From assembly GCF_963921235.1 (NCBI RefSeq), contig NC_086097.1:173912001-173976000 (forward strand): a DNA stretch of 64,000 nt, in the 5' to 3' direction. Positions 18,736-52,580 of this stretch are shown one piece after another (the first letter of the stretch is position 1; the number at the start of each line of letters is the position of its first letter). The position numbers and the translations under genes are program-made. Under the pieces are notes generated by a model, which saw nothing but the letters and a program-made list of their open reading frames with translations, searched no databases and had not been told where the DNA came from. This stretch comes from Mobula hypostoma (lineage: Eukaryota).

Positions 18736-20919
18736 ATCATATAATTTATAAAATTAAAAACAAACCTATGTAAAAACATTGCATTTGTGCAAAAGACCCT
18801 CAGGTGACCAACCCCAATTATTTTAAATAAGAAAATGTTACTCATTTTCAACAGAATTAGCACTTTTCTTAGTGGGACGTGTTTTCACCAAAGTCTCAAG
18901 AACCAGTGGCATCAGTCTTTCTTTACAACTAAAGTACAATCTAACCTATTAACTTGATTGACTTTATTTATATTTTACCCAGAGCTAGAACAATTCATTC
19001 AATAGTATATATGATCAATATATTCAAGAATCAAGAAGTTATCAAACTGACTGTTTCTTCTGAGACTTATCATTGATCTCTCAAATTACACAATATACCT
19101 GCTTCACCACAAGTCCAAACTGTGCTGATAATAAAAACTGACTTTTGAAGGGCCACTATGTAATTCTACAATTACCCAACAGCACATCCACCACCATAAC
19201 TACTTCTATTAAATCGCTTTCCTCTTGCCATTTCTTGAAATTAGTTCGCACCTGAGGTCCTCCATTGGTCAGGGCCAACCTCAAATGCTGCGTCCTGGCT
19301 GTCATACGCAAGCCAGAGCAGTATGATATGGAAAGCAAGCTGTTGCCCATGGTAATTTTCTGTTTCTCTCACAGTTTTACTCTTATTCAATTGTATATGT
19401 GTGTGCTGCCCAATAAAGCGCGTGGAGCCTGGAGCAATATCCTCACCCCTGTATTCAATTGCAGCAGGCTCCACCTCTCCATGCAGCAAATGAATCCGAA
19501 GGAACAGCAGAGACTGATATAATTTGACACCAGCGACGTTGCAGGAGTTGCCAGTCAGCGCTGAACTAAATGTAAGGCTGCCTTGGAGACTCCAGCTCTA
19601 GATTTCTCCTCAGGGTTTACTCCTGAAGCTTTCCCCATGATTGGGTATAGCTGTAAGGCAACGGGTACTTATGGTACTTTTCTGTTTCTCATTCAGTTTT
19701 ACTCCTATTCAATTGTATATGTAAGTACTGCCCAATAAAGCACATGGAGCTTGGAGCAATATCCTGACTCCTGTATTCAACTGAGTAGAGTTTGGCTTGC
19801 TGCTGAATTGTGTACTTCCTACTTCACACACAAGGAGAGAATGCAGCTTCAATACTCATTGAGCTATGTCATCTTGCATCAAATGACCAACAATTTCCAA
19901 GGACTGCATTGGGGCAACCCGCAAGTGTCATCACACTTCCAGCACCAACATAGCACGCTCACAATTCACTAAACCTTACCTCTTTGAAAAGTGGAAATAG
20001 CTGGGAGCACCTGGAGGAAACCCACATGGCTACAGGGATAACATACAAACTTCTTACAGTCAGTGGTAGGAATTATTGGTGCTGCAAAGCAATTGCACTA
20101 ACTGCTATGCTACTGTGCCGCCCTAAGAACATGAACACATACACTTAATGATTTAGGGACACTTTCAAACTCTTTACCATCAGGTTTTTGAATAAACTCA
20201 CAAACACTACTTCGTGTTTCTTATTTTTGCACTATTTATTTATCTGGAATTTATCACAATGTTAAACATCTTTGAACTTTACTGCTGCTGCAAAACAAAT
20301 TTCTCCTCACACAAGTCACTGATAAACCTGATTCTGATTAAGGTATAGTCACTGGATTAAAATGTTGAAAATACAACTACTGATTTACACACAGCAAGTT
20401 TCCATAAATATCTATGTGAATGTGACCGGAAACTCTGTTTCAGTAGTGTAGAATCAACACTGGGCCTTATTTTACTAAATATGAAATTCTAATGTCTGAA
20501 TTTAATGCCATGTTTTGAAAGGTGGAATTTCTGAAAGCACAACACTCCCTTAGAGCAGTACTGCAGAGACAGCCTAAATTTCATGCTAATATCCCTCAAT
20601 GTGCTACTCAAGCTGTGGTGATATCACATGTCATGTGTAAGAATGTGACTGGACAGAGTTATGAGCGTGCACAGGAATGTCAGAATGATCAAGAAGCTTG
20701 TATGTTAAGACGTGGTTGCTGTTTGCTGTTAATTAAAAGTTCTAGTTATGTTCTTCCAGAATATATGTCTTTAGGAGTAACCCACGGTACGTATAAAGAA
20801 CACAACATGGTGTCAGAAGTCGGTCTGGAAGAATAATTCGTTTCGCTAACACAGGAGAAGTGAAGATAATTGAAAAAAAAGAGTGCAAACTTTTTTGTTG
20901 TTTGCTAACAGCTTTAAAA

Positions 20920-22083
20920 ATGGGAGCTTTGAAACCCCATCAATGCTTCAGCTGACTGGAAACGTAGCTGACAGCTGGAAAAGACTTAAACAGCATTTTG
21001 AAATTTATTTATCAGCGATCGGAGCAGATAATAAAACAGAGGAAATGAAAGCTGCAATTCTACTCTACGTGATAGAGAATGATGCAGCTGAGGTATATAA
21101 CCATTTCACTTTCGAAAATGGAGATAATTTGAATCTAAAAGCGATAATGGACAAATTTGACGCATTCTGTGTACCGAAGCACAATGTGACATATGAACGA
21201 TACAATTTTTTCAAATGTCGACAAAGATCTGGTCAAATGATTAATCAATTTGTTACGGAGTTGAGAAACCACAGTAAAAGATGCGAGTTTGCAGAGCTTA
21301 CAGACTCTCTCATTAAAGACAGAATCGTTTGCGGCATTCTGGATAATGGTCTACGAGAAAGACTGTTAGAACAAGATTTGAATTTGGAAAAAGCTATGGC
21401 ACTCTGCAAAGCTTCTGAGACTGTGACATCACAGGCTGAAGAGCTTTTTATTGAGAACTGCAACATACATGCTGTGCGCAAACATATTAGAAAAAATAAT
21501 AGAACGGCAATGGAACTGACAGAGGACAAGACGTCATCTGAAAGAAAAAAACTTTGTGATTGCTAAGGGTGGGAGTACCGACCTAAAAAGTGTCCAGCAT
21601 ATGGAAAAATGTGCAATCACTGCCGTAAGAGTAATCATTTTTCATGCTGCTGAAGTAGAAAGGAAATAAAACACGTAAATACAGTGCTTGAAAATAAACG
21701 TGAGGAATTTTATATTGACGTGCTTTGTGAAAACAAACAAAGTAAGAATAACTGGACTATGCCATTGCAAGTGAACCAAAACATTATCCTGTTTAAATTG
21801 GATACTGCAGCACAAGTAAATGTTCTTGCAGAATCTGAGTTTAATGCATTAAAGCCAAGACCAAAGTTACATCAGAGAAATATAAAAGTGACTGGGTATT
21901 CAGGTGCAGACATTCCAGTTAAAGGAATATATGTGGCAAAAGTATCACACAAAAATATTGAACACATACTTTCATGTACAGTCAATATTGGGTTCACCTG
22001 CCTGTGAGAGACTGAATTTGGTAAAAAGAATTTTAGTCCTGGACAGTGACACAGAGTCAGAATACAGAGCCTTGACGAAAGAG
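20920..22083 (+). pseudogene. Gypsy gag and aspartic protease, disrupted
   Basis: MGALKP/SMLQLTGNVADSWKRLKQHFEIYL...YERYNFFKCRQ...IKDRIVCGI, knuckle CPAYGKMCNHCRKSNHF, protease FKLDTAAQVNVL, linker ILGSPACERLNLVKRI. Frameshifts and stops present. Confidence 0.9.
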
Positions 22084-22357
22084 CAAGAGAGAACAGAATT
22101 TGATTCCAACGCAACAAAAGTAAAAGAAGTCATAAAGAAAAGTCCTAGACCCATTCCTTTGTTACCAGCATCCGACAAAGCACTGCCACCAAAACCAAAC
22201 TTGCCAGTACAGTACAATACTAATCTGAAACCAAAGAGTAACAAGAATCAGGATCCAACTGAAGAAGTGAAAGCACAAGTGAAGGAATTGAGAAGTTTTA
22301 TTGAAATGATGAAGTCTCAGCATAAAAAAAGAGATTACACAGTTAATGAATGAATTG
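22084..22357 (+). pseudogene. SH3KBP1: SH3KBP1/CIN85-like C-terminal coding fragment captured inside Gypsy element
   Basis: KKSPRPIPLLPASDKALPPKP...KPK...EEVKAQVKELRSFIEMMKSQHKK(+1 A)EITQLMNEL resembles recalled CIN85 SDNKASLPPKP...KPK...[32 protein letters not shown]. Confidence 0.75.
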
Positions 22358-22743
22358 CGATTTCTTCTCAAAGACCTCAAGAAAGAGCCAACTTCAGAGT
22401 TTCAGTTAACTGAAGCAGACCAGACGAAACAGGAAATAACAACAAAACACAAGAACTGTGTGAACCACTTAGAAGGTCCACTCGTGTTCGTAAACCCCCC
22501 AGAGAGACTGATAGAGACATGTTAAATTATGCATTTGTTTTGATTAATGTTGCCAATTGCTTTTCTTTTTAAGGAAAGGAAGATGTGGTGATATCACGTG
22601 TCACATGTAAGAATGTGATTGGACAGAGTTATGAGCATGCGCGGAAATGACAGAATGATCAAGGAGCTTGTATTTTAAGACGTAATTGCTGTTTGCTGTT
22701 AAATAAAAGTTCTAGCTATGTTCTTCTAGAATATGTGTCTTTA

Positions 22744-23225
22744 CAAGGGGTGATTGATAAGTTTGTGGCCTAAGGTAGAAGGAGTCAATTTTAGAAAACA
22801 TAGCACATTTATTTTTCAACACAGTCCCCTCCTACATTTACACACTTAGTCCAGCGGTCGTGCAACATACGGATCTTGGACCTCCAGAAAGTGTCCACAG
22901 CATGCACGAGGTGATTGATAAGTTCATGACCTAAGGTAGAAGGAGATGAGTTATACAGCTCTCATTACACGCACATGCAGTTCAACTCTTTGAGTGATTA
23001 TGCAGAAAGCTTGAAGTTAATAACTCGTCTCCTTCTACCTTAGGCCACGACCCTATCAATCACCCCTGCTGCGGACACTTTCTGGAGGTCCAAGATCCAT
23101 ATGCTCCACAACCACTGGACTAAGTGTGTAAATGTTGGAGTGGACTATGCTGAAAAATAAATGTGCTAGGTTTTCTAAAATTGACCCCCTCTACCTTAGG
23201 CCACGAACTTATCAATCATCCCTCG
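22744..23225. mobile_element. Tc1/mariner-type MITE, near-complete palindrome, inserted in the 3' LTR
   Basis: TIRs caaggggtgattgataagtt / aacttatcaatcatccctcg. TA at left (22742-22743), AA at right. ~160-bp arms plus an internal second TIR pair. Confidence 0.88.
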
Positions 23226-23789
23226 AATGAGTAACCCACAGTACGTATAAAGAACACAACACAAGCCATCAGCAATCTGACTCAGAAATGAGACTGCTAC
23301 TGAGCATCCACTGACATACACCATGAGACATTAATAGTTTACAAACCTTAATAAAAAGCACCTGCAACTCTAGTTGGTAACCTTTCAGGGAGCTTCTCGC
23401 TCTATTCATATAGCTTATTTCCTTTAAACTATACTCTTGGGATCGGAAATCTTGTTTATTCAGGAACAGAAAGGTTGAGGGGTTCAATCAACCAAATCCT
23501 GCCTAAGGATCAACACAATAAAAAACTTGGAATGCAGCTAAACAGTTGCTAGAAAGAGATTAAAGTACTATAGCACGAGTGTTATAACCAACATTTGAAC
23601 ATTGATTATAAAGATAGATTAGCTTTATTTGTCACATGTACATCAAATATCAAAACATACAGTGAGATGCGTCATTTATGTCAATGATCAGCACAGACCG
23701 AGGAATTGGAAGAGGCAGTCTGCAAGCGTCACCATGCTTTGGGCACTGACATTACATGCCATCAATTTATTAATCCTAACCCAGATGAC

Positions 23790-24070
23790 ATAGGACTAGA
23801 ATTACCATTTGGCCTATCGAGTCCAATTCATCATTTCATCATGGCTGATCCAATTTTCCTCTCATCCCCAATCTCCTGCCTCTTCCCTGTATCCTATCAT
23901 GCCCTGACCAGTCAAGAATCTATCAACCTCTGCCTTAAATGTACATAAAGACTTGGCTTCCACAGCTGCCTGTAGCAAAGAATTCCACAGATTCACCACT
24001 CTCTGGCTAAAGAAATTTCTCCTCATCTCTGTTCTAAAAGGACACACCTCTATTCTGAGGCTGTGTCCCG
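23790..24070 (-). mobile_element. CR1 LINE 3' end
   Basis: TEMRRNFFSQRVVNLWNSL...FKAEVDRFL motif. Confidence 0.8.
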
Positions 24071-24870
24071 TATACTTTTGGAACATGGGAGGACACCCAA
24101 ACAGCCAGAGGAAATCTACACAGTCACGGGGAGGACATACCAACTCCATACAGACAACAGTAGGAACTGAATGTCAAACACTGGCACTGTAAACAATGTA
24201 CACTAACCACTATGCAACATTTTATTAATACTATTATCATGGTCTCAACCGGCAAAGCAAAAGACAGTTGGTCTCTAGCTGTACTCCTCTCCTCACAGTC
24301 TTTTTGAGATAATTAACAAATGATCCTAGCCTATATAGTGTTGGAATCTCAGAAAAACTACGCTGACAAGAATGAGAATGTCCTTATGTCATGTTTTAAA
24401 AATACGTTCATAGAAATATTTCCAATGTAGCCATATTTTTAAACAGCTTAATAATTTATTCCAGCTTTGGTTTTATCAGGCAAAATTCTGATTTTGGCCA
24501 ATACTACAATCCAATTTCATTTTGCTACTTAGCATATCCTTAGGCTGTTTACAACATGTGACAAAATCTTTTCTACAGAACAGTCAATAAAGCAGGCTGG
24601 AAATTATAACTGTCACAGATGTGTGAAATGGTTTAAACAATTATATTCAAATTACAAATTGTGTGAATTCTTTAAAATTTTACTAATTTAAGCAGCAATG
24701 TGGTATTTTTCAATCTGTGTGGTATGTATCTAACAATATACCAATGTTTATTATTCTTTCAGTTGACCATGTGTGAGAAAACTTTCTTCCATGGCAAGTG
24801 ACAACCTAGCCTATTATTCTAAGTTAAACCACATTTTTCTGTTTCTGAAAAAAAACGCAAACACACATAC

Positions 24871-24871
24871 A

Positions 24872-24934
<63 letters not shown>
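24871..24934. repeat. Compound (CT)n(CA)n microsatellite
   Basis: Visible directly. Confidence 0.95.
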
Positions 24935-24938
<4 letters not shown>

Positions 24939-26144
24939 TATTAAACAAGAGCATTTTTACTGAAATCTTTCAATTTCTCTTAAATTAATTTTCATGTTTA
25001 TAAACAGGTAAGCAGTTAGTATCTTCGTCACCTCTGACAATTTTCAAGGATACAAAGGGAAAATTGATAATTAGGGGAAAGAGTATCAACAGGTATGACA
25101 TATAGGCTGATTGTGAGCTCTTGGGGGAAGAAAATATAAATACTTTAGTAAAAATAAGACTGACTTGATATTTTTATTGGTCCTCTACTAGGCTCAGGAA
25201 CAAGAACTTGAGGACACATGACCAAACCCTTCACCATTTTATCACTAATTCTGTCCACTTCACTGACCCCATAACTCCCAAACCTTCATCTTTGTGCTTG
25301 TCATTTTGTTACTTCATCCTTCCACATCTTTGTAATCTCGTCCTACACTGTAATATATCATTTTTCAGTCTATTGTTCTAATTCTAGCTTTTTGTGCATT
25401 CTGCCCTGTTCTTTACTTGATCATTCATGAGAGTGCTGCTGTTGCTAAAGTTTCATCACCAGATTCCTCTCAAATTTCCTCCTTTTTCTACTTCCCTATC
25501 GTCCTTCAAGACACTTCATAAAACCCACCTTTTGACTAAGTTTGGAGTCACCTGTTCTTATTTGGTAATACTAACTTGATTTCTACACATCTTTCAGAAA
25601 TACTTTGAGGAATTTCTCCGTGATAAAGCTGCTACATAAATTAAGTATTGTTGAAAGAACATGCAACATAAAAGAGTTCAAAAATGCCTTAAAAAATAGG
25701 ATCAATGTCACAGTCAGTTATATCCAATTCTGGTCACATGTACAGTTAAGAAATAAATTCCAAAGATAATTTAAAGCACAAATCAGAACAAAGCTAATCT
25801 TGTTCAAATCCCTCTGCAGTTTATTTTCCATCTATTACTCTAATTTCCCCTAGCTTGACACCTTCTCCAATCTCTGTATTAAACCAAAACTCCTAGCCTT
25901 TCTACTCCATTGCTTTGTTAACAGCAAGTGTTCAACTGCGCAGCCAAAAAAGTTTTGAAAATCCTTTCTTAAGTTTCTCTGCCTCTTCACATTCTTTTAG
26001 TAGTTGTTTAAAGTTTTTTATCTTTGACAAAACCTTTAGGTGCCTATTGTAATATCTGTACACAACCTGGCATGAAATTTTGTACAATACCGCTCCTCTG
26101 CATCTTTTTGGAACTTCTAATTACTTCAAAAGAATTGCAGTTAC

Positions 26145-26680
26145 CCTCCATCCCCCAACCCCCACTTTTTATTCTGGTACCATCCCCCTTCCTTCTATGT
26201 CCTGAAGAAAGGTCTCAGCCAAAACATCAACTATCTATTCATTTCCATAGATGCTGCCTGGCCTGTTGAGTTCCTCCAGTATTTTGTGTGTGTTGCTTTG
26301 TACTTCCAGTATCTACAGATTTTCACGCGTTTATGACTTCCTACTCCACTGTGAAGTTACTTCGAGGAATGCCTACACTGAAGAAATTAAAATTTTCTCT
26401 TTGACAGGGGTTCAGTGAAACCCTCTCTCACTGCTTCCCCTCTATGACCTCTACTGTCCTCTGTCTCTTCCACCACATACACACACAGCTAGCCTCCTTC
26501 TTCTCCTCCAACCTTTTTATTCTGGCACCGTCCCCCTTCTTTCTCAGTTCTGAAGAACAGCCCAGCCAGAAACATCAACGATCTATTCATTTCCATAGAT
26601 GCTGCCTGACCTGCTGAGTTCTTAGAGCATTTTGTGTGTGTTGCTTTGGATTTTCAGCATCTGCAGACTTTCTCATGTAT
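26145..26680 (+). mobile_element. Two tandem Penelope-derived terminal repeats (degenerate hammerhead cores)
   Basis: Two copies (~26150-26335 and ~26500-26680) of ctgaagaa...aaacatcaac...catagatgctgcctg...ttttgtgtgtgttgctttg. Confidence 0.7.
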
Positions 26681-28230
26681 CAATAATGATACTATCCTTG
26701 TCATAAATCGAGATAATAAAACTCATTCCCATTCATATGTATGAAAATCAAAAAGGAATATTAAATCAGTATGGATTGCTTCAAGTTTAACATAGCTAGA
26801 TACAAATTCAACATGGACTTCCAACAACTAAATCAAAACATGTTAAGAGAGCACATTTGTTTCACTCAGGATTTCTGCTAAAATTGGAGTTTCTTTCATA
26901 ATCTGACACCACTTGAGTTCTGCCATCCTTTCCAGGAAATTTGTTTAATTAAGTTTTACAACTAGAATATGAGAGTTTTTCTGTTATAAAAATAGAACAA
27001 AAATCAAATGAGGGAACATATAAAAGAGTGTACAAAGTTCAGTATATTGGAAGGACAGGAAGGTACTCAAAGTTTAGTATTTTCAGTCAACAATCAAAGA
27101 CTTGAGGTCATGTGCCTAAATGAAAATATATCTTTATTTTTTAAATAGTTCAAAATTTTCTACCCTTTTTTCTAGAAATGCCACTAATTTTGAATGACTC
27201 AATCTGGCAATATTTGGTATATCAAAAAAACTATAAACTAAAGTTAGAACTTGATTACATTTTTACATATCAATTTAATTATCAATTAACTAAAACAAAA
27301 GAACTGAAAAAACACAATCCAAAGAAATTATGTACACTTCCCTGTTGCATTGCAGAATAAATAATTTTCTTTATTCTTCAAGTGAGAGATTTATTAATTA
27401 TATAAGTACTTAAAAAAATAAATCACTCAAGTAATACCACTTGGATCACATCAAACACCAACTGAAAAATCATTCTATATTAAAGAAAGTTATACTAATT
27501 TGTACAAGCCATGAATTAGACCAACATTTCCTCAGAGTTATTATCTCATAGGGAATATCCAATTTCCAGCCTTTGGTTATGCATTAACATTTAAAATTAA
27601 AATTGAATCCTGGCTTCTTCTAAAGCCAGTCATGCAATAAGATCTTCTCAATGGCATGAAAGATGAGAGCTATTATAATAACCTAAACCAAAATTCTTAA
27701 AATCCCTGAAGACACTGTAGGAAATGCCCACCCTCCCTGTGATCTCACTTCTACCCCCAACCTAACACAGCTCTTCAGCACGACTATCAAAGATTCACGA
27801 TGGAAAATTCAAATCTAATTAGTTGCCATTGGGTAATTTGGTTTAGACTTAAATATATACTGTACTTCCAAAATCTATATGTGCTCTAAAACCAATGGAG
27901 ATAGGCATGCAGATAAACATTCATGCAAAAAAAGTCCAATTACCTTGACCAAATAAATAGACTGTCCCAACCTTTTTTTCCACAACTCTCTTGCCCCATT
28001 TATCTTTCAAACACTCCCACTTAAGAGCATTTTTTTGACAAAAAGGAAGAAAAGAACACATGCATTTGACAGTACATGCTAGAAACCACTTTGTTTTCAA
28101 AATAATCTCAGAGTAGTTTTATTCCACACAATTAGAACTTTTTTGTAAAGCCTCGAAGTCAATTGTAAAGGTACCCGGTTCAGAAAAATGTTTCAAATTC
28201 AAACCAAACATAGAAGAATAAATTAGGTAA

Positions 28231-28432
28231 CACATACAAAATGCTGGAGGAACTCAGCAGGTCAGGCAGCATCTATTGAAAAAAGTACAGTCAAGGTTTC
28301 GGGCCAAGACCCTTCGGCAGGAAACATTGACCGTACTTTTTCTCCATAGATGCTGCCTGGCCTGCTGAGTTCCTCCAGCATTTTGTGTGTGCCACTCGTC
28401 TTTCCAGCATCTGCAGATTCTATCTTTTTTTT
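28231..28432. mobile_element. Penelope-derived fold-back element with 16-bp TSD
   Basis: Inverted arms; direct repeat AGAATAAATTAGGTAA at 28215-28230 and 28433-28448. Confidence 0.85.
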
Positions 28433-30229
28433 AGAATAAATTAGGTAAATCTTTTGTTTCCTGAATACATATTTTTGAAATAATAATTTTAAATCATCAG
28501 ACTTCTGACACCACTGATTTATTTACCAGAAGGTGATCCTAAACATCGCCCTTTCTGTCTTTTACTACTAACCAAGATTCAACAACTAAAGACTTGAAAG
28601 CTCTAGATTGGGAATGTGCATACAGAACAACATCTTATTCATCTGTATGCTGCTCCTGCTTCATACCAGAGTGAAGAGACATTTTCTCTGTTCATTGTTT
28701 GTGAGTTTTCCTTTTCGTTCACTTGATTTTCTTTTGTAAGAACCATAAGGCAAAGTAACAGAGCTTTCAATCCACTACGTCTGTAACAACCATCAAGCAC
28801 CCATTTGCACTAATTCTTTTTACCCCTTGCATTCCCCTAGAGTGTGAAAATTCACTACTCCATTTCTTTAGCACCTGCACTTCAAAGTACTTGGGAAGTT
28901 CCCAAGGTCTTGAAATGCTGGACAGATGCAATTTTTCATTACCACACTATATTTTATCCAATCACAATTTGCAGCTATAATTGCATTTACTGTAGCAAAA
29001 TTTTCAAAGACATTGAAAAGAATATTATGAATAATTATTTGACACCAAGCCATAGAAATAAACATTAGGCTTAATCAATGCGACTGGTTTTCAGCAGCAT
29101 CTCAATGGACGAAGGAGGCAGATACAACAACAAAGCATTCAGGTGCGGGATAAAAACTGAACTTAAAAGCTTGTCAAAAACACCAGCCTTCTCCAAACCA
29201 GCTGCAGAAAAAAATTATTCAAATTTAAATGCAAGTTATATTTCTAATAACTTGTAGTTTTAGGTGGCAGAATAGGACCCTGAACCACCAATAGATGCTG
29301 GGAGGAAAATATCTTTGCAGCTCAGTTCAGCATGTATATAAGGAAATAGACACTGAGGAAGTATATTGCTGAGGACCCTCAATGGGGAGGCCAAAAGAAT
29401 AGGATGATCATTATGACTCAAGATTAAATTTAACAAGCTGTATTTATAAAACTACCACTGTAAATTTAATGTTAAATGTATTCTATTGCTGCAATTTAAT
29501 CTAATCTCAGTTTCATCTCAAGTTGAGTTATGGTATTGAAATATTTTAAGTGGTAAATGAGGCCTGTTAATAACATGTAATGAAGCATTTAAACACAACC
29601 ATGCATTATAAGAAAATATTGAATGAAATATCAGGGCTTGAAAAAAAGACTTGCATTTATACAGGAGCCATGATAGCCGCAGGACATTTCATGCAACCTG
29701 GAGATATACCAAAGCATTTTACAGCACGTTACTTTTGAATTATACTCACTATTGCAATGTACGAAGTGAAACAGCTAATTTGTACAGCGCAAGCTCTCAC
29801 AATTGCATGATGCAACCAAATAATCAGCTCTTATATCGAGGCAAGGGAAAACTTAATTAGGACAAAGATGTCTTAGTCAAAAGAACAAGTGCAATTAAAT
29901 TTTTTTTAAAACAGTACAGGTTGATACGAGTTTCTCAAAACACAAATGGAAAACTTGCCAATGCTCAAAGTGACACTAATGTTGGATCCAGAGATGTTAT
30001 GATCCAGTGATTCTTTGGAAGACAAGAATGAGGTGATTGCTACTGTTTTATTAAATGTTAAATAGCAAAGGACAAACAAAAAAGTCTTGCTCATCTTATA
30101 CAAGGGAGATAGATAAAGCACATTCCAGTGATAAGAAATAACCTATGAAATAGCTTTGGTGGTGAACTGCAAAACACTTCTAGAAAAATACAGAATCAGC
30201 TGGAACACTTGGATAATGAAGATGCATAC

Positions 30230-37040: not shown

Positions 37041-37281
37041 ATGCACTTGCATGGCCTTTAGAATTAAACCATGCTTAAAGCAAACACTTTTAAATAGTGT
37101 CAATTCTGTTTCTGTTCAAAAAGTAGTGATTTTTATCACTGATAGTTGGTGACAAAGAAGCAGCAAGACCAAATCAGAACTGTTGTGCTCACCGCATTTT
37201 CAAGCATTCAAGCTTGGAGTTGCCAGAAATGGCCAGGAGTGAAAATGAAACAATTTCTCTACTTCAACAAGAGAGGAATTA

Positions 37282-38847
37282 CAGGTGTCCCCCACTTTTC
37301 GAACGTTCGCTTTATGGAACCTCACTGTTACGAAAGACCTACATTAGTACTCTGTTTTCGCTTTCAGAAGGTGTTTTCACTGTTATGAAAAAAAAAGCAG
37401 CGCGCAGGGAAAATCTGCGCGCAAAAAAACCAGCACATGATAAAAGGCAGCGCGCGCTCTGAGCAGCCACTCTCCCCCGGATTTGGAACTGCATTATCGC
37501 CGGCATTGCTTTAACACTTGCCTGTAAGCAGCCGTTTGCAAGATGAGTTCTAAGGTATTGGAAAAGCCTAAAAGAGCTCGTAAGGGTGTTACACTTAGCG
37601 TAAAACTAGACATAATTAAGCGCTTCGATCGTGGTGAACGAAGTAAGGACTAAGTGAGTTTGGCTTGTGGAAGCTGACGAACATGATGTTGAAGAGGTTT
37701 TGGCGTCCCATGACCAAGAACTGATAGATGAAGAGCTGATGCAATTGGAAGAGGAAAGAATAACAATTGAAACCGAATACAGTAGCGAACAGACCGAAGG
37801 TGAAGTCGTCCAGGAACTGAACGTGAAGCAACTGCATGACATTTTCGCTGCAATGATAAAGTACGTCTTTAATTTTGAAAGGGTACGTAGGTTTAGGGGA
37901 TATTTGCCTTATAAACAACTATATGATAGAAAAATGCACGAGGCTCAGCAGTCAAGCAAGCCTTCCGCATCAGCCACAGCAGACGACGAACCTCGACCTT
38001 CGACATCGAGGCAGGCAGTCATAGGAGAAGATGAGCTGCCTGCTCTAATGGAAACAGATGACGAGATGACACCCCAGTGTCCCACCACCCCGTGATTCGC
38101 GGAGAATACAGCGGCAGCCAGGAGGCACACAGCACATCTTGAAGAAAAAAGCTGAAATAAACATGCTAATTAATTAGGTGCAGTCTGACACGTAATTAAT
38201 TAGCAAGTTTATTTTGGCTTTTTTCTTAAAGATGTGCTGGATGCCTCCTGGCTACCGCTGTACCCCTGCATGCTTCACTGTTCAGTATCTGTCGGCGGCC
38301 TGGAGGGTGGGGGCCACTGCACCAGCCAACCGGCTACAACTCAGTCTAACACACCACCATCAGTGTGCTCGATGCGATCTTCCCGATTCCAGTAAGTGAT
38401 ACTACACTGTACATACATTATTTCTACTTTATATAGGCTGTGTATTTTTATGTGTTATTTGGTATGATTTGGCAGCTTCATAGCTTAAAGGTTACTGGAG
38501 AGCGCTTGCGCCGTGTTTTTGCCAACAGCGCTTGCATGAGATTTTCTGCCGACGGCGCTTGCGTGAGATTTTCACTACAGAGAACAGTGCAGTAATGATT
38601 GTGGAAAAGTATTTCTACTTTATATAGGCTATGTATTTATCATATCATTCCTGCTTTTACTATACGTTACTGTTATTTTAGGTTTTATGTGTTATTTGGC
38701 ATGATTTGGTAGGTTATTTTTGGGTCTGCGAACGCTCACAAATTTTTCCCATGTAATTAAATGGTAATTGCTTTTTCGCTTTATGACATTTCGACTTACG
38801 AACCATTTCATAAGAACGCTTTACCTTCGGATGGCAGGGGAAACCTG
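37282..38847 (+). mobile_element. Internally deleted Tigger/pogo DNA transposon
   Basis: TA|caggtgtcccc...ggggaaacctg|AA ends. From ATG 37543, HTH-psq MSSKVLEKPKRARKGVTLSVKLDIIKRFDRGE is joined to the acidic C-terminus DVEEVLASHDQELIDEELMQLEEE; the DDE core is missing. Confidence 0.85.
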
Positions 38848-38849
38848 AA

Positions 38850-39903: not shown

Positions 39904-39992
39904 TTGGCATAACCTTTGTAAGTTTCAACTGTACCACTTTGAAAACAAACCCTGAGTGTCAGCTTTGCTTTCTTTATGCCTTACTAACATTT

Positions 39993-42842: not shown

Positions 42843-42914
42843 AGTAATGATTTTTTTTCTGGCTTGTCCAGTACTATTTCCTTTAATCTACTGAAACTCA
42901 TGTCACTTTTAACC

Positions 42915-43525
42915 AGTACTGAGTTTAGGAGCCGAGAGATAATGTTGCAGCTATATAGGACCCTGGCCAGACCCCACTTGCAGTACTGTGCTCAGTTCTG
43001 GTCATCTCACTATAGGAAAGATGTGAAAACTACAGAAAGGGTGCAGAGACAATTTACAAGGATGTTGCCTGGATTGGGGAGCATGCATAATGAGAATCGG
43101 TTGAGTAAACTCAGCCATTTCTCCTTGAAGTGACGGAGGATGAGAGGTGACCTGATAGAGGTGTATAAGATGATGCGAGGCATTGGTTATGTGGATAGTC
43201 AGAGGCTTTTTCCCAGGGCTGAAATGGCTAGCACGAGAGGGCACAGCTTTAAGATGCTTGGAAGTAGGTACAGAGGAGATCTCAGGGATAAGTGTTTTTT
43301 TTTACGCAGAGAGTGGTGAGTGCATGGAATGGACAGCCAGCAACAGCGGTAAAGGCGGATACAATGGGGTCTTTTAAAAGACTCCTGGATAGGTACCTGG
43401 AGCTTAGAAAAATAGAGGGCTATGGGCAACCCTAGGTAATTTCTAAGGTAAGGACATGTTCGGCACAGCTTTGTGGGCCGAAGGGCCTGTATCGTGCTGT
43501 AGGCTTTCTATGTTTTCTATGTTTT
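42915..43525 (+). mobile_element. CR1 LINE 3' end
   Basis: REIMLQLYRTLARPHLQYCAQFWS; tail ttctatgttttctatg. Confidence 0.88.
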
Positions 43526-44871
43526 CATTAAGCAAACACTGATAAGCAAACCCAGCACACACACACTTAATAATACTCAGTACAATATTTGGAGAGTATT
43601 GCTATTTTTAATACATTTTTTGTTTCCCCTTCAATTCACTCCCAGGTATTGCATATTTTTTCTATTTTAATTTTTTGACATAACAGCAGAATTAGGACAT
43701 TCAGCCTATTGAGTCTGCTCTGCTATTTGATCATAGCTGATTTATTTTCACTCTCAACCCCATTCTCCTGTCTTCTCCCCATAATCATTAACACCCTTAC
43801 AAATTAAAGTAACATCAATCTCTGCTTTAAATATACCCAATGACTTGGACTAAAGTAACCTTCTGGACTTCAGTTAATTTCTAAGCTCCATTTATCCCTA
43901 GAATCTCAATTCAAAATGCCTTCTCCCTTGTAACGTCCTATTGTTAATTCGCATCTTCACAAGCTCCATAGTTCGAAGTATCCCTTTGTTATTTTGTAGT
44001 CTTTTGTGGCAATTCCTATCTTCACCTTACCTTCGAAGTTTAGAACTCACCTTAAGGAAAAATAATCATTTGAACATAAGTAGGTAACCACTATTTACTG
44101 ACCATGCACAATATCTTTACAACATCTGACCTGAACCAATCTGATGGCCTTTTTATTGATTAAGCGTATTCTTTTCTATTTTAACTTCTAAAATGAACAT
44201 TATGTTGATTTTGATAATATGCATCTATCTGCATATTTTATTTTCAAACAGAACAAAAATGAAGATAGTGACTTCAGGAAAAGATATATGGACAATAAAA
44301 AGCAGGTCAGTATGAAGGACAAGTTGGAAGAACTCAGCAGGTCAAGCAGCATCTGCAGGGAAAACATCCGACATTTCAAGACACAACCATTTCTGTCTCC
44401 AGTTCAACAGGCTGTTGTCCGTATTGGAGGACTTTAGCTATGGGAGAGATTGAACAAACTAAGTTTGTTTTTGCTTGAGGAAATGAGGCTAAAGGATGAC
44501 CTGATAATGGTACATAAAAATTATAAAACGAAACATATATGAGAAAAGTAGCCATAAACTTTTTCTTGTGGCAGTAGTATCAAAAACAATGTGCAAGAAA
44601 AGAGTTTTAAAGGTCAACTGAGGAGAAAGTTTTTTTTCTAAAGAGTGCTTGATATCTGGAACTCACTGCCAGAGGCGATGGTGGCATCAAAATTATTTAA
44701 GAAACATTTAGAAACACTCTTAGACAGGCAAGGTATAGAAGGATATAGAACTAGTGCATAAAAATGAAATCACTATAGATGGACAAAAATGTCAGTCAAA
44801 TAGGCATAGGACACATACAATAAACGGTACTGTGGCAAGGAATGCTCATTAAAAGAGGAACATGGTAGACC

Positions 44872-45500
44872 GGTAGACCATAAGACCATAAGACATCGAA
44901 GCAAAATTAGGCCATTTGGCCCATCAAGTCTGCTCCAGAATTTAATCATGGCTGATCCTTTTCTCCCCTCCTCAGCCCTACTTGCCAGCCTTCTCCCCAT
45001 AAGCTTAGGTGCCGTGTCCAATCAAGAACCTATCAATCTCTGCCTTAAATACACCCGGTCTCCACAGCTGCCTGTCATAATAAATTCCACAAATTCACCA
45101 CCCTCTAGCTGAAGAAATTTCTCCGCATCTCTATTTTAAGTGAATGCCCCTCTATCAACATTTATCGTATGATAACCCTTTCATTCCCAGAATCACCTTT
45201 GTAAACCTCCTCTGAACCCTCTCCAATGCCAGCACATCTCTTCTTTGATGAGGAATCCAAAACTGCTCACACTACTCAAGGTGCTCCTTGCTCTTGTATT
45301 CTAGACCTCTTGAAATGCTAACATTGCATTTGCCTTCCTCACCACTGACTCAACCTGCAAGTTAAGCTTCAGGGTGGTCTACACAAGGACTCCTAAGTCC
45401 CTTATCACCCCAGATTTTCGGATTTTCTCCCCGTTTAGAAAATAATCTGCATATTTATTTCTAGTATCAAAGTGCATGGCCATGCATTTTCCAACAATGT
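44872..45500 (-). mobile_element. CR1 LINE 3' end
   Basis: Tail (accataag)n and CR1 ORF2 C-terminal sequence matching the reverse complement of ~57950-58745. Confidence 0.82.
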
Positions 45501-45504
45501 AGAT

Positions 45505-45648
45505 CAACAAATATACGGGACTGATGAAGGGTTACTGCCCGAAACATAAATTGTATTTTTTCCCATGGATGCTGCCTGGCCTGCTGAGTTCCTCCAGCAT
45601 TTTGTGTGTGTTGCTTGGATTTCCAGCATCTGCAGATTTTCTCGTTTG
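45505..45648 (+). mobile_element. Penelope-derived terminal repeat with hammerhead-like core
   Basis: CTGATGA-agggttactgccc-GAAAC followed by the family tail. Confidence 0.72.
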
Positions 45649-45649
45649 C

Positions 45650-46170
45650 TGCAATAGGAATAGTCAGAATGGCTTTGTGTAGGGGAAGTCATGCCTGACA
45701 AATTTTTTGGAGCTTTTGAAAGAGGGAGCTGAGTGGTTAGGTGTTGGTAGGACAGTGGGTGTTGTCTATACAAACTTCTAAAAAGTCCTTTGACAAAATT
45801 CCACATAGCAGGCTGACCTGGAAGGTTAGATCACATGGGATTCAGGGAAAGCTTGCAAGGTGAATTCAGAATTGGCTCAATGATAACTATCAAGTGATGG
45901 TTGAAGATTGATTTGCCAAATGAAGGCCCGTGGCTAGTGAAGTGCCCCAAGGGTCAGTGTGGGACTCATACTATTCATTATTTATGTTAATTATTTGGAT
46001 ATGAATGTAATGTATATAGCATGCTTCACAAATTTGCTGATGATACTAATTTAGTGGTCTTATTGATAATGAAGCAAGTAATAATGAAATGCAAAGAGAT
46101 CTTGATCAGTTAGACAGATGGGTTGAAAAATGAAAAATGGATTAGAGCTTAGATCAATGTAAGGTTATGA
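45650..46170 (+). mobile_element. Old CR1 RT fragment
   Basis: GKSCLTNF, FDKIPHSRL, VPQGSV, KFADDT remnants. Confidence 0.75.
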
Positions 46171-48538
46171 ATGCCCACCTTACAAACAAGCATCGGGAAA
46201 CCTTGCAAGATGAAATTGCCAGCTACAGCAGCATTGCAAGTGTCTTCTACCATGTGTAAATCCTGTCTGTGGCAAAATCAGTGCCACAGAGAATCAGAGA
46301 AATTTGAATTAAGTTTATTGCCCAGGTTTAAGTGCACATTGTCCTTGGTTGGCCTATATTTTTATTTAAATATATTGCCGGACTGGCATATTTCTGACTT
46401 GCAAACTGTTCAAGTTACAAACAATTCTCAGGAACAGAGCCCTATCGTAAACAAGAGAGGGGCTATATTCCTGAAACCCTTCCAGCAAGTCTTTTGTTCA
46501 ACCCCACTAGACCTTTAATTTTTTTCTGAAATACTTTAACCGAAATTGTGTGCAATACTCCTGTTTGGCTTTATCAGTGTTACATAAACATTCAATTTTT
46601 TTTTCAGCTACCTTTTAGGTGACAGATTAATCCAATACTTCGTCTGTTCCCTGCTAGATAAAAATGAGCAACTCCATAACAACTTGAACCCATATAGAAC
46701 CTTCAACATAATAAAACAACCCAAGATGCTTCACAGCAGCATTATCAAACGAAATTTGACACCAAGTCATGGAAGCAGAGAATAGAGCTGATGGCCAAGA
46801 GGTCAACCGAAAAAAATGGTTTAGAGAAGGACGATAGCTTAAAGGTAAAAAGGTTAACGGAAAGACATGTTAACAACAAAATACTACAAGTATAGGATCT
46901 GCTAAATATTCATTATTCTCAAATATACTGCTAACTTATGCCCTCACTTGTACATTTTAATCCATTTCATGATCCTACCTTGTATCATTACCCTTCACAT
47001 AGGAAGTAAAACATTTAGGAATTTTTGGCAAGAATCATCTTCACTCCAGTTGCTGATCTCACCTATTTTCACATATCCTCTCCTCATAAAGATTAGCCTT
47101 ATTTATCACATGTACATTGAAACACTGAAATATAGTGTCATTTGCATCAATGACCAACACAGTTCAAATATGTGCTGGGGGCAGTCCATAAGTTTCTGAC
47201 ACCAAAATAACATGCCCACAACTTACAAACTCTAACCCCCAGGTCTTTGGAATGTGGGATGCTCCTGAGCTGAAGAGTATTTATTTTTAGCATTTTCAGT
47301 TCTTATTACTATCTACAACTAGCTCTCCCAAAATCTCTTACCCTTCATGGTGCCTGCAACCCCAATTGCTGTGACATGATCTCACGTAATTCTGACATAC
47401 AAGCATCATTGTGCATTCATTTCTTTTCTTCAAAACTGGTAAGTGATCACACAGTATGACAATTTATTAGTTATCATCATTATGTGCCATATCGTATGAC
47501 ATGGGCGATCATGGTCTTCCATCCATGACAATAGTTGTTTTTTTGCAAATTTTTCAGCGGAAGTGGTTTGCTATTGCCTTCTTCTGGGCAGTGTCTTTAC
47601 AAAACTGGTGACCCCAGGCACAATCAATACTCCTCAGAAACTGTCTGCCTGGCATCAGTGGTCACATAACCAAGACTTGCGATATGCACCAGTTGCTCAT
47701 ACGACAATCCACCACCTGCTCCCATGGCTTTATGTGACCCTGATCAGGGAGCTAATCAGGTGCTACACCTTGCCCAAAGGTGACCTGCAAGCTAGCAGTG
47801 GGAAGGAACACCTTACACATCCTTTGGTAGAGACATATCTCCACCCCACCAACCAATTATTACTATAAAACTATTTAAGTTTGGTAACTTTTTCAAAAGC
47901 ATATTTTAATTAACCTTGGAACCGCCTCCCGCCCCCCCCCCACTGTTGTTCTAACTCCCACTCTTCCTAGTTTTTAAGTATTGATACTTAAAGAAACAAA
48001 GATTGTCCACGTTATTCAGTAGTTATTCCATACAATTCAATGTATTTAATCTCTAATTAAATCTTCCAGACTTCAGTTTAATCTCATTATTATATTGACT
48101 GATTCCTTCATATGATGATTCTATAAGCACAGGAATAATTTGTGTTAATAAATAAGGGACCAACTGCAGATACATCCTGTATGTTTTCAATTCCATTCCA
48201 AACAAAATATTTTTCCTAACTTTGTTGCAATGTTGACCTACTTTATTTCCACACGTTTCAATAATATTCAAACAGTCCTCATTCATAAAATCTCATCAAT
48301 AGAAAACCAAAAAATATTAGTTTTTATTATACTATTTGTACCTAGTAATTTCACTATATTCCTTGGGTGTTGGCCATTTCAATAAATCTTATTGTTTTCT
48401 TATTGCTTCTCTTATCTATCCGTGCCTTAAAAAGTAGTTTTCAGTCAAAGGATGACTTAAGAATTCAAAAGTTAAAGGAAATAATTCACATTTTGACAAT
48501 AGTAAATAAATGAATATAAATATCCAATGCTAACTTAC

Positions 48539-48682
48539 ATGTGCATCATCTTTTAGCTTTAGAATACATTCCATAGTATTTATGGTGATAACAACAGGCT
48601 CAGAACCCAACTTTGTCCATGGCACATGAATCCTTAACTCATGAATTTGTCCACTCAAAAAGGTGAATGGTAATTTCAACTC
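48539..48682 (-). CDS. VPS13B: VPS13B second coding exon (exon 3)
   Basis: ELKLPFTFLSGQIHELRIHVPWTKLGSEPVVITINTMECILKLKDDAH, 144 nt, phase 0/0. Acceptor ttttacag|GAG at 48683, donor CAT|gtaagt at 48538. Continues the exon 2 frame. Confidence 0.97.
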
Positions 48683-49367
48683 CTGTAAAACAGTACATTT
48701 GACATTAAATGTTTTGTTCACTGTAAAACAACATACAATACAATGATCAACTATTGAAATAAAGGACTTCAAATTTCAAACAAAAATTGTTAGGTATATG
48801 TTATTATGTGGCAAGGTGTAAAGAAGCGGAATATGAAACCTTGCTTACATAGTATCTGTGAAGGTACGTTCACTAATTTAGCAGAAAAGTTTTAGGTTCT
48901 TTTTACATAAATGTAAGTATTCCAAAATTCAAAGAAGTTTGAAATTTAAAACACTTCCAGCCCCGAGTATTTCAAATAAGTGGTGCTTAACCTGTACTAT
49001 CTCCATTTATAATCAGCAGCCAGAAACATGTCTCCCTGGTCATTCACCAGTGGGTGCTCAACCAGCAGCTCTCTTATAGTATCTATCAACAACAGAACTG
49101 ATGAAAAATCAGAAGTGAAGGAGTTTCAAAGCAGTACTCAATGCTTGGAAATAACTCAAAGCAGAGAAACAGTAGTCAGGGCCTAAGTTCTCCCGAGTGC
49201 TTTTGTTGTTCTTTTGTTGATTGCAGAAGGAGGGAAATGTAGAGGGAACAGAAGGGACAAACAAATATAGTTACTGAGAAACCTGGTAGAATTCCAATAA
49301 CCCACTATCCTGTTGTTCAGGAATCCAGACAGTTCAGCATCTGACTAATTAAGTGCCTGTTCTCATC

Positions 49368-49800
49368 CAACACACACAAAATGCTGAAGGCACTCAGCTG
49401 GTCAAGCAGCATCTATGGAGGGAAATAAACAGTCAATGTTTCAGGCTGAAACCCTTCATCAGGATTGGAAAGGAAGGTGGCAGAAACTAAAATAAGAAGG
49501 CAAGGGGAGGGGGAGAAGTACAAGGTACATGATAGATGAGGGCAGCTGAGGGGAAAGGTGGGTGGGTGGGAGGGGGGTGATGATGTGAGAAGCTGGGAGG
49601 TGAAGGGTGGACGAGGTAAAGGGCTGAAGAAGAAAGAAACTGAAAGGCAAGTATCGTGGACTATGGAATAAAGGGAAAGAGGTGGGGAACCAGAGTGAGG
49701 TGATGGGCAGATCATGAAGGTGGGGGAAGGGAAAATAAAGGGTGAGAGCGACAGCAAAACAGAGAAAAACAAAAAGTGGGGCAGGTGAAATGGGGGGGGG
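49368..49800 (-). mobile_element. Penelope-like element terminal portion
   Basis: Reverse complement of the family tail; minus-strand ctgatgaagggtttcagcctgaaacattgactg at ~49430-49463; purine-rich body. Confidence 0.72.
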
Positions 49801-50556
49801 GGGGAGTGATTCCCATACTCCCTTCAACACACCTGGAACTGGTTCTGACACTTCTGTTGTCACACCAGGGTTCCAGTTCCCATGCTCTCTTCATCACACC
49901 AGAGCCCCGGTTCTGGTGCTCCCTTTGGTACATAAGGGCCCCGGTTCCCATGCTTCTTGTAAACATTTCAGATTGACTAGAAAATGTATCACACTGTTAT
50001 ATTACACTTGAACAATCTTTTCTTACATCTCCCATATGCATAATTATGAAGTGGTACTGTGACAGACACTATACAAAAATAATTACTTGACATTTGTTTT
50101 CAATGCACCCAAAGAAATGTGTGTGAAGTTTAAATATAATCTTTGAAAGGAATGTACATTGAGAAAGAAAAGTGGAAACAAGTGACCAAGGCTGATAAAT
50201 TAATCAAGGTGGCATCCATTACTTCTTGGAATTATTGTAGGCAGGGAAGTAGCCTAATTGGTAGATGGAAAATATATTTCTGGTTACAATAGCAATTACA
50301 AAGTGTATGAAATGCCCATAGAGTAAAACAAGGACCAGGAAAGACATACAAGTCAGATTAATAATAATTATCATTCTGAAGCTGACATACCTACAGATAC
50401 CACTTGCTCCTTAAAAAAGAAAAACATTGTATTAAGAGTAAATGTATTCTTGGAACAATTATTTGACTCTTTAAATTATCTCACTTTTTTTTAGTTATAA
50501 AGTTCATATACTCCAAAAATGTAAATTTCTCTCTCATCCTTGAAGTCAAGAGCTAT

Positions 50557-52580
50557 TGTTATGTCTTGTAACTTCAAAACATTAAACTGATTCAAAGGAA
50601 GCCACGGGAGTCTAAAATGCGGGTCTAACTTCGAGTTTACGTTAGGCAAGGCATGGATGTATTACATGGTAACTTGATGTATGCATTTCACATATTTATA
50701 CATGTAACCTGCAATGAGTTATTTAAACTAAGAGTAATATATGTACAATATTGCTGAAATATTAAATGCCTAACACTCCTCCCTGCTTAGCCATAAGCTC
50801 CAAGTCAATAGAAAATGCATCTCAACTATATACAGACATCCACAGCAAGTTAAATTTAAGATTGTCCCATTCAGGCCTAAAGATTTAATTACTGTAGAAG
50901 CTTTCCTATTCTTGTGGGATAACATCTTCTCTGACAAGGGAGGTCACTCTGCTTGCAGGTGAGACTTGTGGCTGTGAAAACAATCACACACTTTGGGGCC
51001 TCCTCCTTGGTGGTTGTAAGAGTTGACTCTGAAACTGTAGGAATTAGCACTGACAGCTCTGGATACCTTTCTTCTCCTTTTCTCTCTCTGGATCTACTTC
51101 GATCCCTTTCTTCTTTCTTTCTCATGTTCCTTCTCTTTTACATCATTCTCTTTCTCTTCACATTCCTTCTCTCCATCTTTTCCCTCCTTTTTCTTCTTCT
51201 AGTTTGTGCATCTTGAACTTGGGAAGGTCCATTTAGTTCACTTGAGTATTCTCTTATTAATCTTTCTATTGCTCCCTTTACTTTTGGCATAAGCCAAATT
51301 GCTTGTCTAGTGTTAGTTTTCACCCTGTAAATCTCACGGTTGCTTAGTCCTGTGTAACTCTCATTGTTATCCGATTTTTCATCAACAGCATTAGATTAGT
51401 GCTTTTTTGAAATTGCAAATTGGCTTTTCAATCTCTTTCTCTTCTCTGTGCAATCCATTTATCTTTGCCTGACATACTCTTTGTAGGTGCCTTACTTTGT
51501 AGCACTTTCCGTAAGTTTTGCCTTTAAACCTACATTGGTCTGGTGCACATGAGCTACTGCTACAATGGTAACACAATTTGTTCAGCCAGGCCAGTTTCTG
51601 TTTATATGTTGCAATTTTGTTTATGTTCACTTTCATTCCTAACTGCAACTCAGCTGTGTCTCTATCTGAGGTTTCCATTGAAACAGCAATTTCAACTCCT
51701 CTTTTAAACGTAAACTGTTTTTGAATGCTTTATTGTAAGATTCCACAAACTAAATGATCTCTTAGTGTATCATTAAGCCCATTACCAAACTGACAATGCT
51801 CAGATGAGCTCTTCAATTCAGCCACGTACATAGAAATGGACTCCCCTTTCTTTTGATTCCACTTATGAAACCTAAAGCGTTCTGTAATCAACAATGGCTT
51901 CGATTCTAAATATTCCTGCACTACTTTGACAATAGGTCATTTCTGCTCGTTTGGTCGGAGCAGTTAAACTTCAAAGCAAATTCTATGCCTTTAAACCCAA
52001 TGCACTCAGCAAAATTGGTACTTATTTCTCATTGCCCATTTCATTTGCTTCAAAATACTGTTAAATTTGCTCAGTATATAAAGTCCAATTATCTGTTATG
52101 TAATCGAATGTGTCAATCTTTCTGATGCTGCCAGCCATTACTGCATTTTTAAATAGATGGTTATCACCCAGAAGTCATTCTTCATGAGCCATTGAATTTC
52201 AGTTTTCTGACTTTTTTTTAAAAATTTGATCATGTCTTCCCTTCCAAAGAACAAGTGCTGCTCTGCTTTTATTTTTAAACTCCAACAGCCTCTGCGTATT
52301 CTGAGCTGTGTTTCCTTAGTTCAAACGTTTCACAGTACATCATGTCGCTAGCCGTTTCGAGTTTGTTTTAAAAATACTTCGTCACCAATGCTATGTTTTG
52401 TAACTTCAAAACAAAGGAATTTACTTTAAGTGAGGTGCACACATATCACGTGGAAGATTGATGATGTATGCAATTCACATATTTATACAAATAACATCGT
52501 GAGTTATTTAAATGAACAAAAATATTTCACAAAAAATACATTTATCGAAGATTACTCAAATATTCGAAAGGCAAGAACAG
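50557..52580 (-). mobile_element. Second Gypsy LTR retrotransposon, non-autonomous, with captured host-like fragment
   Basis: LTRs at 50557-50775 and ~52389-52580, both beginning tg(t/c)tatgt(c/t)ttgtaacttcaaaaca on the plus strand. PBS TGGTGACGAAG on the minus strand next to 52388; PPT AGGGAGGAG next to 50776. gag ERFRFHKWNQKKGESI...LRDHLVCGI and pol C-terminus RCYPTRIGKLLQ. Possible TSD GCTAT. Confidence 0.88.
51080..51281 (-). pseudogene. RBM25: RBM25-like coding fragment captured inside Gypsy element
   Basis: VKGAIERLIREYSSELNGPSQVQDAQTRRRKRREK resembles recalled RBM25 IKGAIEVLIREYSSELNAPSQESDSHPRKKKKEK. It is followed by a decayed E/R/K-rich tract and ERDRSRSRE, like the RBM25 RE/RD-rich domain. 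Confidence 0.85.

Follow-up and report, generated by a model that had tools for sequence, protein, structure and literature searches.

Replication-defective transducing retroviruses carry gag-oncogene fusions in which host sequence stands in place of replication genes, and they depend on helpers. Host sequence was also captured by the long terminal repeat (LTR) elements maize Bs1, with pieces of three genes, and HERV-K, in the case of FAM8A1 (both as cited in Tan et al., 2016, PMC5131818). The LTR-mediated retrocopies outlined in the same paper consist of internal spliced mRNA placed between discontinuous parts of one LTR element, with microsimilarity at both switches, sense orientation, multi-gene mosaics, and non-autonomous re-mobilization; in all these respects they resemble the elements reported here. 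The capture of KIT-ligand and nectin3 by crocodilian endogenous retroviruses, as summarized in Chong et al., 2014 (PMC4299795), is likewise an old germ-line mRNA capture that was amplified and is shared between species. Here, we analyzed two elements, A and B, in a 64,000-nucleotide stretch of the devil ray Mobula hypostoma (NCBI RefSeq assembly GCF_963921235.1, contig NC_086097.1, positions 173,912,001 to 173,976,000 of the forward strand), hereafter the window; positions are those of the window unless a contig is named. Judging from their sequences, these are probably decayed copies of Gypsy families in which spliced host mRNA replaced the reverse transcriptase (RT)-RNase H-integrase part of pol by template switching, and which were amplified via the enzymes of full-length relatives while the gag-protease-cargo frame was still translated.

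An initial annotation had recorded LTRs, primer-binding sites, polypurine tracts, gag, and the last pol codons in two LTR elements, each with a host-mRNA-like insert in sense orientation at a gap in pol. All of these features were found in place, and the inserts proved to be intron-free exons of SH3KBP1 (278 nt, element A) and RBM25 (about 200 nt, element B). Cargo A aligns with three consecutive SH3KBP1 exons of the host genome (G000:C18:80902122-80902210, 80906391-80906641, and 80907729-80907758) at 92%, 90/96%, and 100%; the pieces join at splice sites, and introns of 4.2 and 1.1 kb are gone. These host exons agree at 91-100% with the predicted Mobula hypostoma protein P0001 over the exons used. 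The cargo A frame matches batoid SH3KBP1 proteins (best E = 1.5e-33) and the SH3KBP1/CIN85 coiled coil in PDB (2N64/5ABS, E = 0.002), and it carries a 93-nt in-frame internal deletion at 22195-22197 with CCA microhomology. Element A occupies 20614-23261 on the plus strand, with a 5-bp target-site duplication (TSD) on both sides:

20609-20613, second copy at 23262-23266, plus strand: TSD CAAGC (sequence)
20614-20807, plus strand: 5' LTR, 194 nt, TG...CA (repeat comparison)
20808-20819, plus strand: primer-binding site TGGTGTCAGAAG (sequence)
20920-21760, plus strand: gag with zinc knuckle, its frame interrupted by stops and a frameshift
21760-22083, plus strand: aspartic protease and protease-RT linker in the gag frame, with a small deletion near 21976 (Pfam; siblings)
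22079-22356, plus strand: cargo A, spliced 3' coding exons of SH3KBP1 (CIN85), 278 nt (host-gene alignment)
22355-22368, minus strand: 14-nt inverted copy of the element's own neighboring pol sequence at the 3' junction, a strand-switch scar (in 35 of 62 loci)
22369-22524, plus strand: pol C-terminal tail, KDLKKEP...RRSTRVRKPP
22570-22583, plus strand: polypurine tract (sequence)
22584-23261, plus strand: 3' LTR, interrupted by an insertion at 22746-23226

The protease of element A was recognized by the Pfam profile gag-asp_proteas (PF13975, E = 0.004), and we take its primer-binding site to be of the tRNA-Leu type. The insertion in its 3' LTR is about 480 nt long, palindromic, and similar to miniature inverted-repeat transposable elements, with inverted ends that are presumably of the mariner type.

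Element B lies on the minus strand (52579-50557). It has LTRs, a primer-binding site, which we take to be of the tRNA-Ser type, and a polypurine tract; its TSD is not clean:

52389-52579, minus strand: 5' LTR (repeat comparison)
52376-52387, minus strand: primer-binding site TGGTGACGAAG
51310-52140, minus strand: gag with zinc knuckle, strongly decayed
51277-51310, minus strand: first seven or so protease codons and a copy-specific secondary deletion, joined in frame to RBM25 at a GTAAA microhomology
51080-51281, minus strand: cargo B, spliced RBM25, about 200 nt (host gene at G000:C1:99.809-99.820 Mb)
50878-51078, minus strand: pol C-terminal tail, EERYPELS...RCYPTRIG, with the 3' switch at a GGAGAAGAAA match
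50776-50786, minus strand: polypurine tract
50557-50775, minus strand: 3' LTR (LTR comparison)

Cargo B is built from a portion of one exon, two stretches of the RE-rich exon, and the exon-exon junction that follows, with internal deletions common to the family. In siblings of element B, the protease is still present and the RBM25 portion, with the RRM, measures 600-800 nt, from up to nine spliced host exons (C1) at about 80-90% identity. A private deletion in element B took out the protease together with ~500 nt at the front of the RBM25 cargo that its siblings keep; no other copy among 40 scored spans its junction. The claim that both elements keep gag and the start of pol is therefore correct for A, with gag and protease; in B, only about seven protease codons survived. 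One exon in the RBM25 cargo, 48 nt long (VSMLYTMNRCPTEGKQ; G000:C1:99832586-99832633), is missing from the bony-fish proteins viewed; hence a specific RBM25 splice isoform was captured. A Pfam PWI search missed RBM25, and the host gene was located with a C-terminal protein query; the exons that the PWI search did match we take to be SRRM1- and PRPF3-like. The Kimura two-parameter (K2P) distance between the LTRs of B is ~0.31, a noisy value over 135 aligned nt; it is 0.107 in A, and 24 A copies have a median of 0.096, so that B looks older than A.

Core queries for RT, RNase H, and integrase of both lineages gave no match within element A or B, where only the pol tail of A was matched, and none of the 30 loci detected with an integrase H2C2 profile matched either element. 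Compared with full-length relatives, about 2.4 kb of pol is absent, and each cargo sits between two non-adjoining parts of a single LTR family. The loss of these enzymes that the initial annotation described is thus confirmed, as is its view that the two elements are unrelated: lineages A and B have no pol DNA similarity, and their RNase H and integrase are 24-37% identical in amino acid sequence.

At the founder switch points the microsimilarity amounts to 5-10 nt, as read directly from the junctions without a match-length simulation. Against full-length relatives, the 5' switch of element A lies at AAGAG, inside a 10-nt GATGAAAGAG match, and the founder 3' microhomology is AGAAAGC. The 3' junction seen in the window is secondary, because a founder-like form with a fourth exon and the AGAAAGC tail join exists (15 loci). 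In the element B family, the 5' switch lies in TGCCACA, common to pol and the end of the upstream RBM25 exon. Lost introns, sense orientation, and microhomology at founder junctions agree with template switching onto host mRNA, as had been suggested. Processed pseudogenes made by long interspersed nuclear elements (LINEs), landing in existing LTR elements and then trimmed by DNA deletions, are a most improbable source. Remains of CR1-type LINEs are plentiful in the window, and a vertebrate survey, in the portion consulted, associates retrocopies outside mammals with non-LTR elements (bioRxiv 10.64898/2026.06.26.734816). But the junction sequences show no poly(A) and no TSD bordering the cargo, only internal coding pieces are present, the cargo takes the place of pol, with microhomology on either side, and one cargo is nested in another at matching words, which largely refutes the LINE route.

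The inserts match host genes, differ from pol, and recur throughout the 3.48-Gb genome, contrary to each of the outcomes that the initial annotation had named as refuting its reading. A first look gave 1,043-13,469 candidates, numbers that are not copy numbers. The 621-nt cargo region of A was matched over its full length, at 84-89%, by 24 of 40 scored candidates, the window copy not counted; 39 copies match the cargo plus tail of B. For sampling that is independent of the cargo, we searched with the proteases, taking the top hits to one query rather than random draws. The top 93 hits of lineage A (window and three segmental duplicates included; 70 read directly and 23 classed by coordinate overlap) continued into cargo in 57 cases, into RT in 34, and into neither in 2. 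The cargo was SH3KBP1 in 46 copies, RABEP1 together with SH3KBP1 in 9, and RABEP1 only in 2. Lineage B yielded 22 RBM25 copies, 22 RT copies, and 1 with neither (n = 45, query copy included). Since cargo copies make up about half or more of both lineages, two cargo elements in one window are unremarkable, and the 30-kb proximity of the pair, to which the initial annotation had drawn attention, needs no special account.

The same sampling revealed candidate helpers. Relatives of A with the same LTR and the same gag continue into RT in 30 of 30 loci, and Pfam profiles found protease, RT, RNase H, integrase zinc finger, and integrase core in Gypsy order; all relatives that were read contain stops or frameshifts. 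For lineage B, RNase H and integrase were detected by Pfam and RT from translations. The domain order of full-length members and, in A, TG...CA LTRs, primer-binding site, polypurine tract, and integrase-type TSD are features of Ty3/Gypsy; the single gag-pol frame, short LTR, and 5-bp TSD resemble those of the Mag clade. A perfect and distinct 5-bp TSD was seen by eye in 18 of the 23 sibling A copies with both LTRs (lineage A only). Hence the A copies integrated singly, without an integrase of their own. Junctions common to dispersed copies with their own TSDs, together with full-length same-LTR relatives, bear out the suggestion of amplified non-autonomous families mobilized in trans.

It is extremely improbable that every copy is an independent capture produced by very frequent transduction. 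Many different junction variants exist, as such a process might leave, but founder junctions and deletions are common to the variants, and the same junctions occur in other species. For the two elements of the window, independent capture per copy is refuted; it holds at the lineage level only. Frequent capture, the other option raised earlier, accordingly stands per lineage, with at least four host genes in three Gypsy lineages, and falls per copy. SH3KBP1, RABEP1, and RBM25 were mapped to exons and SUDS3 was assigned by Pfam and frame only.

Several copies record further rearrangement, in the form of later serial deletions and mosaics. RABEP1 exons map to C71, and the RABEP1 cargo spans a 9-kb intron that is spliced out. 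The RABEP1-cargo copies of lineage A are L177, L232, L235, L236, L242, L251, L259, L263, and L264, as well as L233 and L244. Nine RABEP1-cargo copies carry the SH3KBP1 coiled coil nested in frame, and the same mosaic is present in Hemitrygon and Hypanus proteins. At L027 (G000:C12:196.28 Mb), RT precedes the SH3KBP1 cargo and resumes past the tail, as in a nested insertion or a recombinant. Tandem or segmental duplicates of cargo copies with shared LTR arrays (G000:C22, 4.06 and 5.77 Mb; C18, 182.5-182.7 Mb) represent a DNA-level route of amplification. In lineage B, L223, L268, L277, L278, and L285 have RT, with part of RNase H, joined to the pol tail without integrase at similar points; these copies form a probable cargo-free deletion family.

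Junctions of this genome recur in predicted proteins of the stingrays Hemitrygon akajei (P0012, P0015) and Hypanus sabinus (P0138), where such elements are annotated as host-like genes. The joins in common are the VIKK 5' join, the KKA|TVLEE 3' join, and the RABEP1/SH3KBP1 mosaic joins. The lineage-A captures are old, since the same junctions are found in predicted proteins of two stingrays. Element copies side with Mobula and Hemitrygon residues against Pristis; at one position 26 of 32 copies have E where the G000 host has D, with E in Hemitrygon and Pristis. The SH3KBP1 capture thus likely postdates the sawfish split and predates that of stingrays and devil rays, with horizontal transfer between rays as an alternative. 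Diversification of myliobatiforms has been placed in the late Late Cretaceous (PMC6485097, in the part consulted). A search of other species with the protease-RBM25 frame, a weak one over 113-361 aa, returned two hits, neither of them chimeric. The age of the RBM25 capture therefore rests on divergence alone.

We then consider the reading frame. A jump alignment was used to divide 67 segments of lineage A into stretches of pol, SH3KBP1, RABEP1, and tail, and 62 loci were retained after dropping L016, L018, and L021 (duplicates) and L166 and L249 (insertions of short interspersed nuclear elements, SINEs). Fourteen large junctions, RABEP1/SH3KBP1 mosaics among them, are each found in 2-35 copies; for 14/14 the modal shift is zero, which leaves gag-protease, cargo, and pol tail in a common frame. 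The chance in-phase rate, computed from every k-mer that these donors have in common, is 0.37-0.45. Of the large junctions seen in a single copy, 6/12 are in frame. Adding two truly shared small deletions gives 15/16 in frame. One natural copy has an open frame of 472 codons running from gag through protease and cargo into the tail. The 5' join of lineage B is in frame in 27/27 measurable copies, and that of a third Gypsy lineage (C), with SUDS3 cargo behind the protease, in 28/30 loci (L319-L348). The SUDS3 lineage has 119 Pfam matches genome-wide and several 3' variants. What the three lineages have in common is that gag-protease is intact, that the join directly after it is in frame, and, as far as this was examined, that the frame stays open almost to the 3' end. 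A tail peptide is not a general requirement: the commonest B variant is out of frame there, ending in another frame shortly ahead of the normal stop while other B variants enter the tail in frame, and one SUDS3 copy terminates at the host stop.

Some observations weigh against a requirement for continuous translation. The exception among the 16 is a frameshifting 5-nt deletion common to 3 A copies; an automated tally, in which small deletions lying close together are lumped, puts only 16/20 in frame (P = 6e-4); and 5/14 of the shared junctions come from one mosaic subfamily, possibly selected jointly. In addition, the out-of-frame B variant has a modal spacing of 182 nt at the pol tail (shift 2, 11/25). 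It is nevertheless quite unlikely that the chimeras are passive passengers, i.e., short defective RNAs with intact cis signals that outcompete the helpers and keep frame through in-phase coding microhomologies. Copies decay neutrally once inserted, the B tail frame was lost, and the in-phase share grows with match length, from 0.37 to 0.45 and to 0.6 for 7-mers of one donor pair, all of which would suit passengers. However, shared large junctions are always in frame and single-copy ones in only half of the cases, several junctions are in frame despite a homology of 0-3 nt or the presence of the 14-nt inversion, and 5' junctions are in frame in three lineages.

Variation in gag points in the same direction as the junctions. 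Selection tests were run without repeated loci and without tandem or segmental duplicates (L016, L018, L021, L168, L169, L174), and, for gag, without CpG sites. In gag of lineage-A cargo copies, variants shared by at least 3 copies were synonymous and nonsynonymous in a ratio of 45 : 48, compared with 83 : 291 for singletons (P = 1e-6); for variants private to cargo copies, the respective ratios were 10 : 12 and 135 : 549 (P = 0.007). As judged from these spectra, lineage-A gag shows purifying selection. Cargo and RT copies interleave on the gag tree. Here, too, there are points on the other side. The "private" variants were judged against only 23 RT copies, the gag tree is star-like and weakly supported, and most of the gag signal (53 : 50) lies in variants also present in RT-bearing copies, so that it may have been inherited by recombination. 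Shared and singleton variants of protease and cargo did not differ significantly (P = 0.27, 0.12, 0.51, and 1.0), and the site model is rough, as omega for singletons comes to 1.0-1.6 and, in one small set, to 2.35.

The template-switching reading can be put as a sequence of steps. By established retroelement biology, host mRNA would be co-packaged in a virus-like particle, and two template switches at short matches would insert a piece of it in place of the pol core. The short chimeric RNA would then be copied and integrated by RT and integrase of full-length elements. Further switches between co-packaged RNAs could create new junctions, such as SH3KBP1 nested within RABEP1, and recombination with helper elements may also occur. 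The frame and gag data suggest translation of the chimera, which would thereby provide its own Gag-protease in cis. Variants with early stops may rarely multiply, either through RNA surveillance or through translation-coupled packaging, both compatible with the data; selection would act on continuous translation of the RNA and not on the function of the cargo protein. What the RNA must keep for copying apparently includes a frame open from gag across the foreign sequence. A search for sequencing runs by their words found no RNA run among the matches listed, in which six organisms hold 0.28-0.43 of the words. A few contigs bridging window-type junctions, along with host SH3KBP1 mRNA contigs, came from three runs guessed to be RNA and one unlabeled run, which may be DNA, and were not used as evidence of expression.

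The cargo protein itself could aid the element, with a coiled-coil or charged-helix piece behind the protease oligomerizing Gag-protease in place of RT and thereby favoring the amplification of such captures, though we regard this as unlikely. The SH3KBP1 coiled coil, the Rabaptin region of RABEP1, and SUDS3 are fused some 10-40 codons from the protease (lineages A and C), and RBM25 has the same position in B. The first half of the coiled coil is kept in 58/60 SH3KBP1-bearing copies, in which the proline-rich part is gone; serial two-ended deletions would leave a common core anyway, and half of the sample was chosen with that region. In human immunodeficiency virus type 1, as outlined in PMC3291649, a leucine zipper behind the protease increases Gag cleavage, but the zipper also reduced particle yield. 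Moreover, cargo codons carry no selection signal (a test of low power), the B cargo consists of the RRM and RE-rich tract with the main variant partly read in another frame, and purine-rich mRNAs have more microhomology with a purine-rich element. Extended to the whole group, the proposal would be that Gypsy lineages of the stingray order repeatedly evolved a semi-autonomous class in which a host coiled coil replaces RT-RNase H-integrase and is selected as a stand-in for RT in Gag-protease assembly or activation. The chimeras would equal or outnumber their helpers, shuffle coiled coils, and form a large part of the retrocopies counted in cartilaginous fishes; this, too, seems doubtful. Domestication as a retrogene does not apply to the window copies, which are broken; singleton omega is at or above 1.

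Outside the two elements, the window consists of debris from SINEs, LINEs, and DNA transposons, and an Rfam search of the whole window gave no match. Broken open reading frames (ORFs) like those of DNA-transposon transposases (14926-16654, minus strand) have no significant Pfam match; an acidic ORF at 37658-38095 (plus strand), also without a Pfam match, presumably resembles the tail of a Tigger/pogo transposase. LINE fragments at 54195-57489 include RT (Pfam RVT_1), a GDSL-esterase ORF1 piece, and an endonuclease-like piece, and a 10-nt purine repeat occupies 55041-55243. At 60499-61175 there is a 75-nt direct repeat (95%) with copies ~530 nt apart and a CCTGGT repeat between them. A CpG-rich island at 61850-62500, in which a frame of 180 codons runs without a stop, matched nothing in Pfam or Rfam and is possibly a promoter or first exon.

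The results bear on retrocopy surveys of cartilaginous fishes. SUDS3 is listed as a top retrocopy parent in these fishes in the part of the bioRxiv survey consulted (10.64898/2026.06.26.734816). All 30 SUDS3 loci that we examined lie behind a Gypsy protease, 28 of them in frame, which contrasts with that survey's attribution to non-LTR elements. SH3KBP1, RBM25, and RABEP1 are not mentioned in its main text as consulted; its supplements may list them. In the literature searched, which included few subscription journals and repeat databases, we found no description of these families in cartilaginous fishes.

Comparison with described systems shows where the ray elements depart from them. Unlike the LTR-mediated retrocopies, as those are presented in PMC5131818, cargo copies here account for at least half of the sampled copies in two lineages, are common to different ray families, and are fused in frame to gag-protease. 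The crocodilian captures, according to the parts of PMC4299795 consulted, are retroviruses with 6-9 copies and separate, near-whole ORFs under purifying selection, whereas the ray elements are Gypsy, carry coding fragments in place of pol, and show no detected selection on cargo. Plant TR-GAG elements, as outlined in PMC8704663, have one Gag-supplying ORF and are helped by an autonomous relative, as here; with protease, pol tail, and host exons, the ray elements go beyond a gag-only structure and are similar in supplying Gag. Compared with transducing retroviruses, Bs1, and FAM8A1, the ray elements have no env and no sign of cargo acting on the host, and they number hundreds of germ-line copies as opposed to one event. 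The capture route, LTR-mediated retroposition, is thus known; what is unusual is the scale, persistence, and frame rule, and not the pair in the window. The hundreds of copies with serial junctions offer a natural experiment as to which features a defective LTR RNA has to retain in order to be copied. They also show LTR-mediated capture in a vertebrate involving entire families, which persisted across a split of ray families, and not just isolated events.

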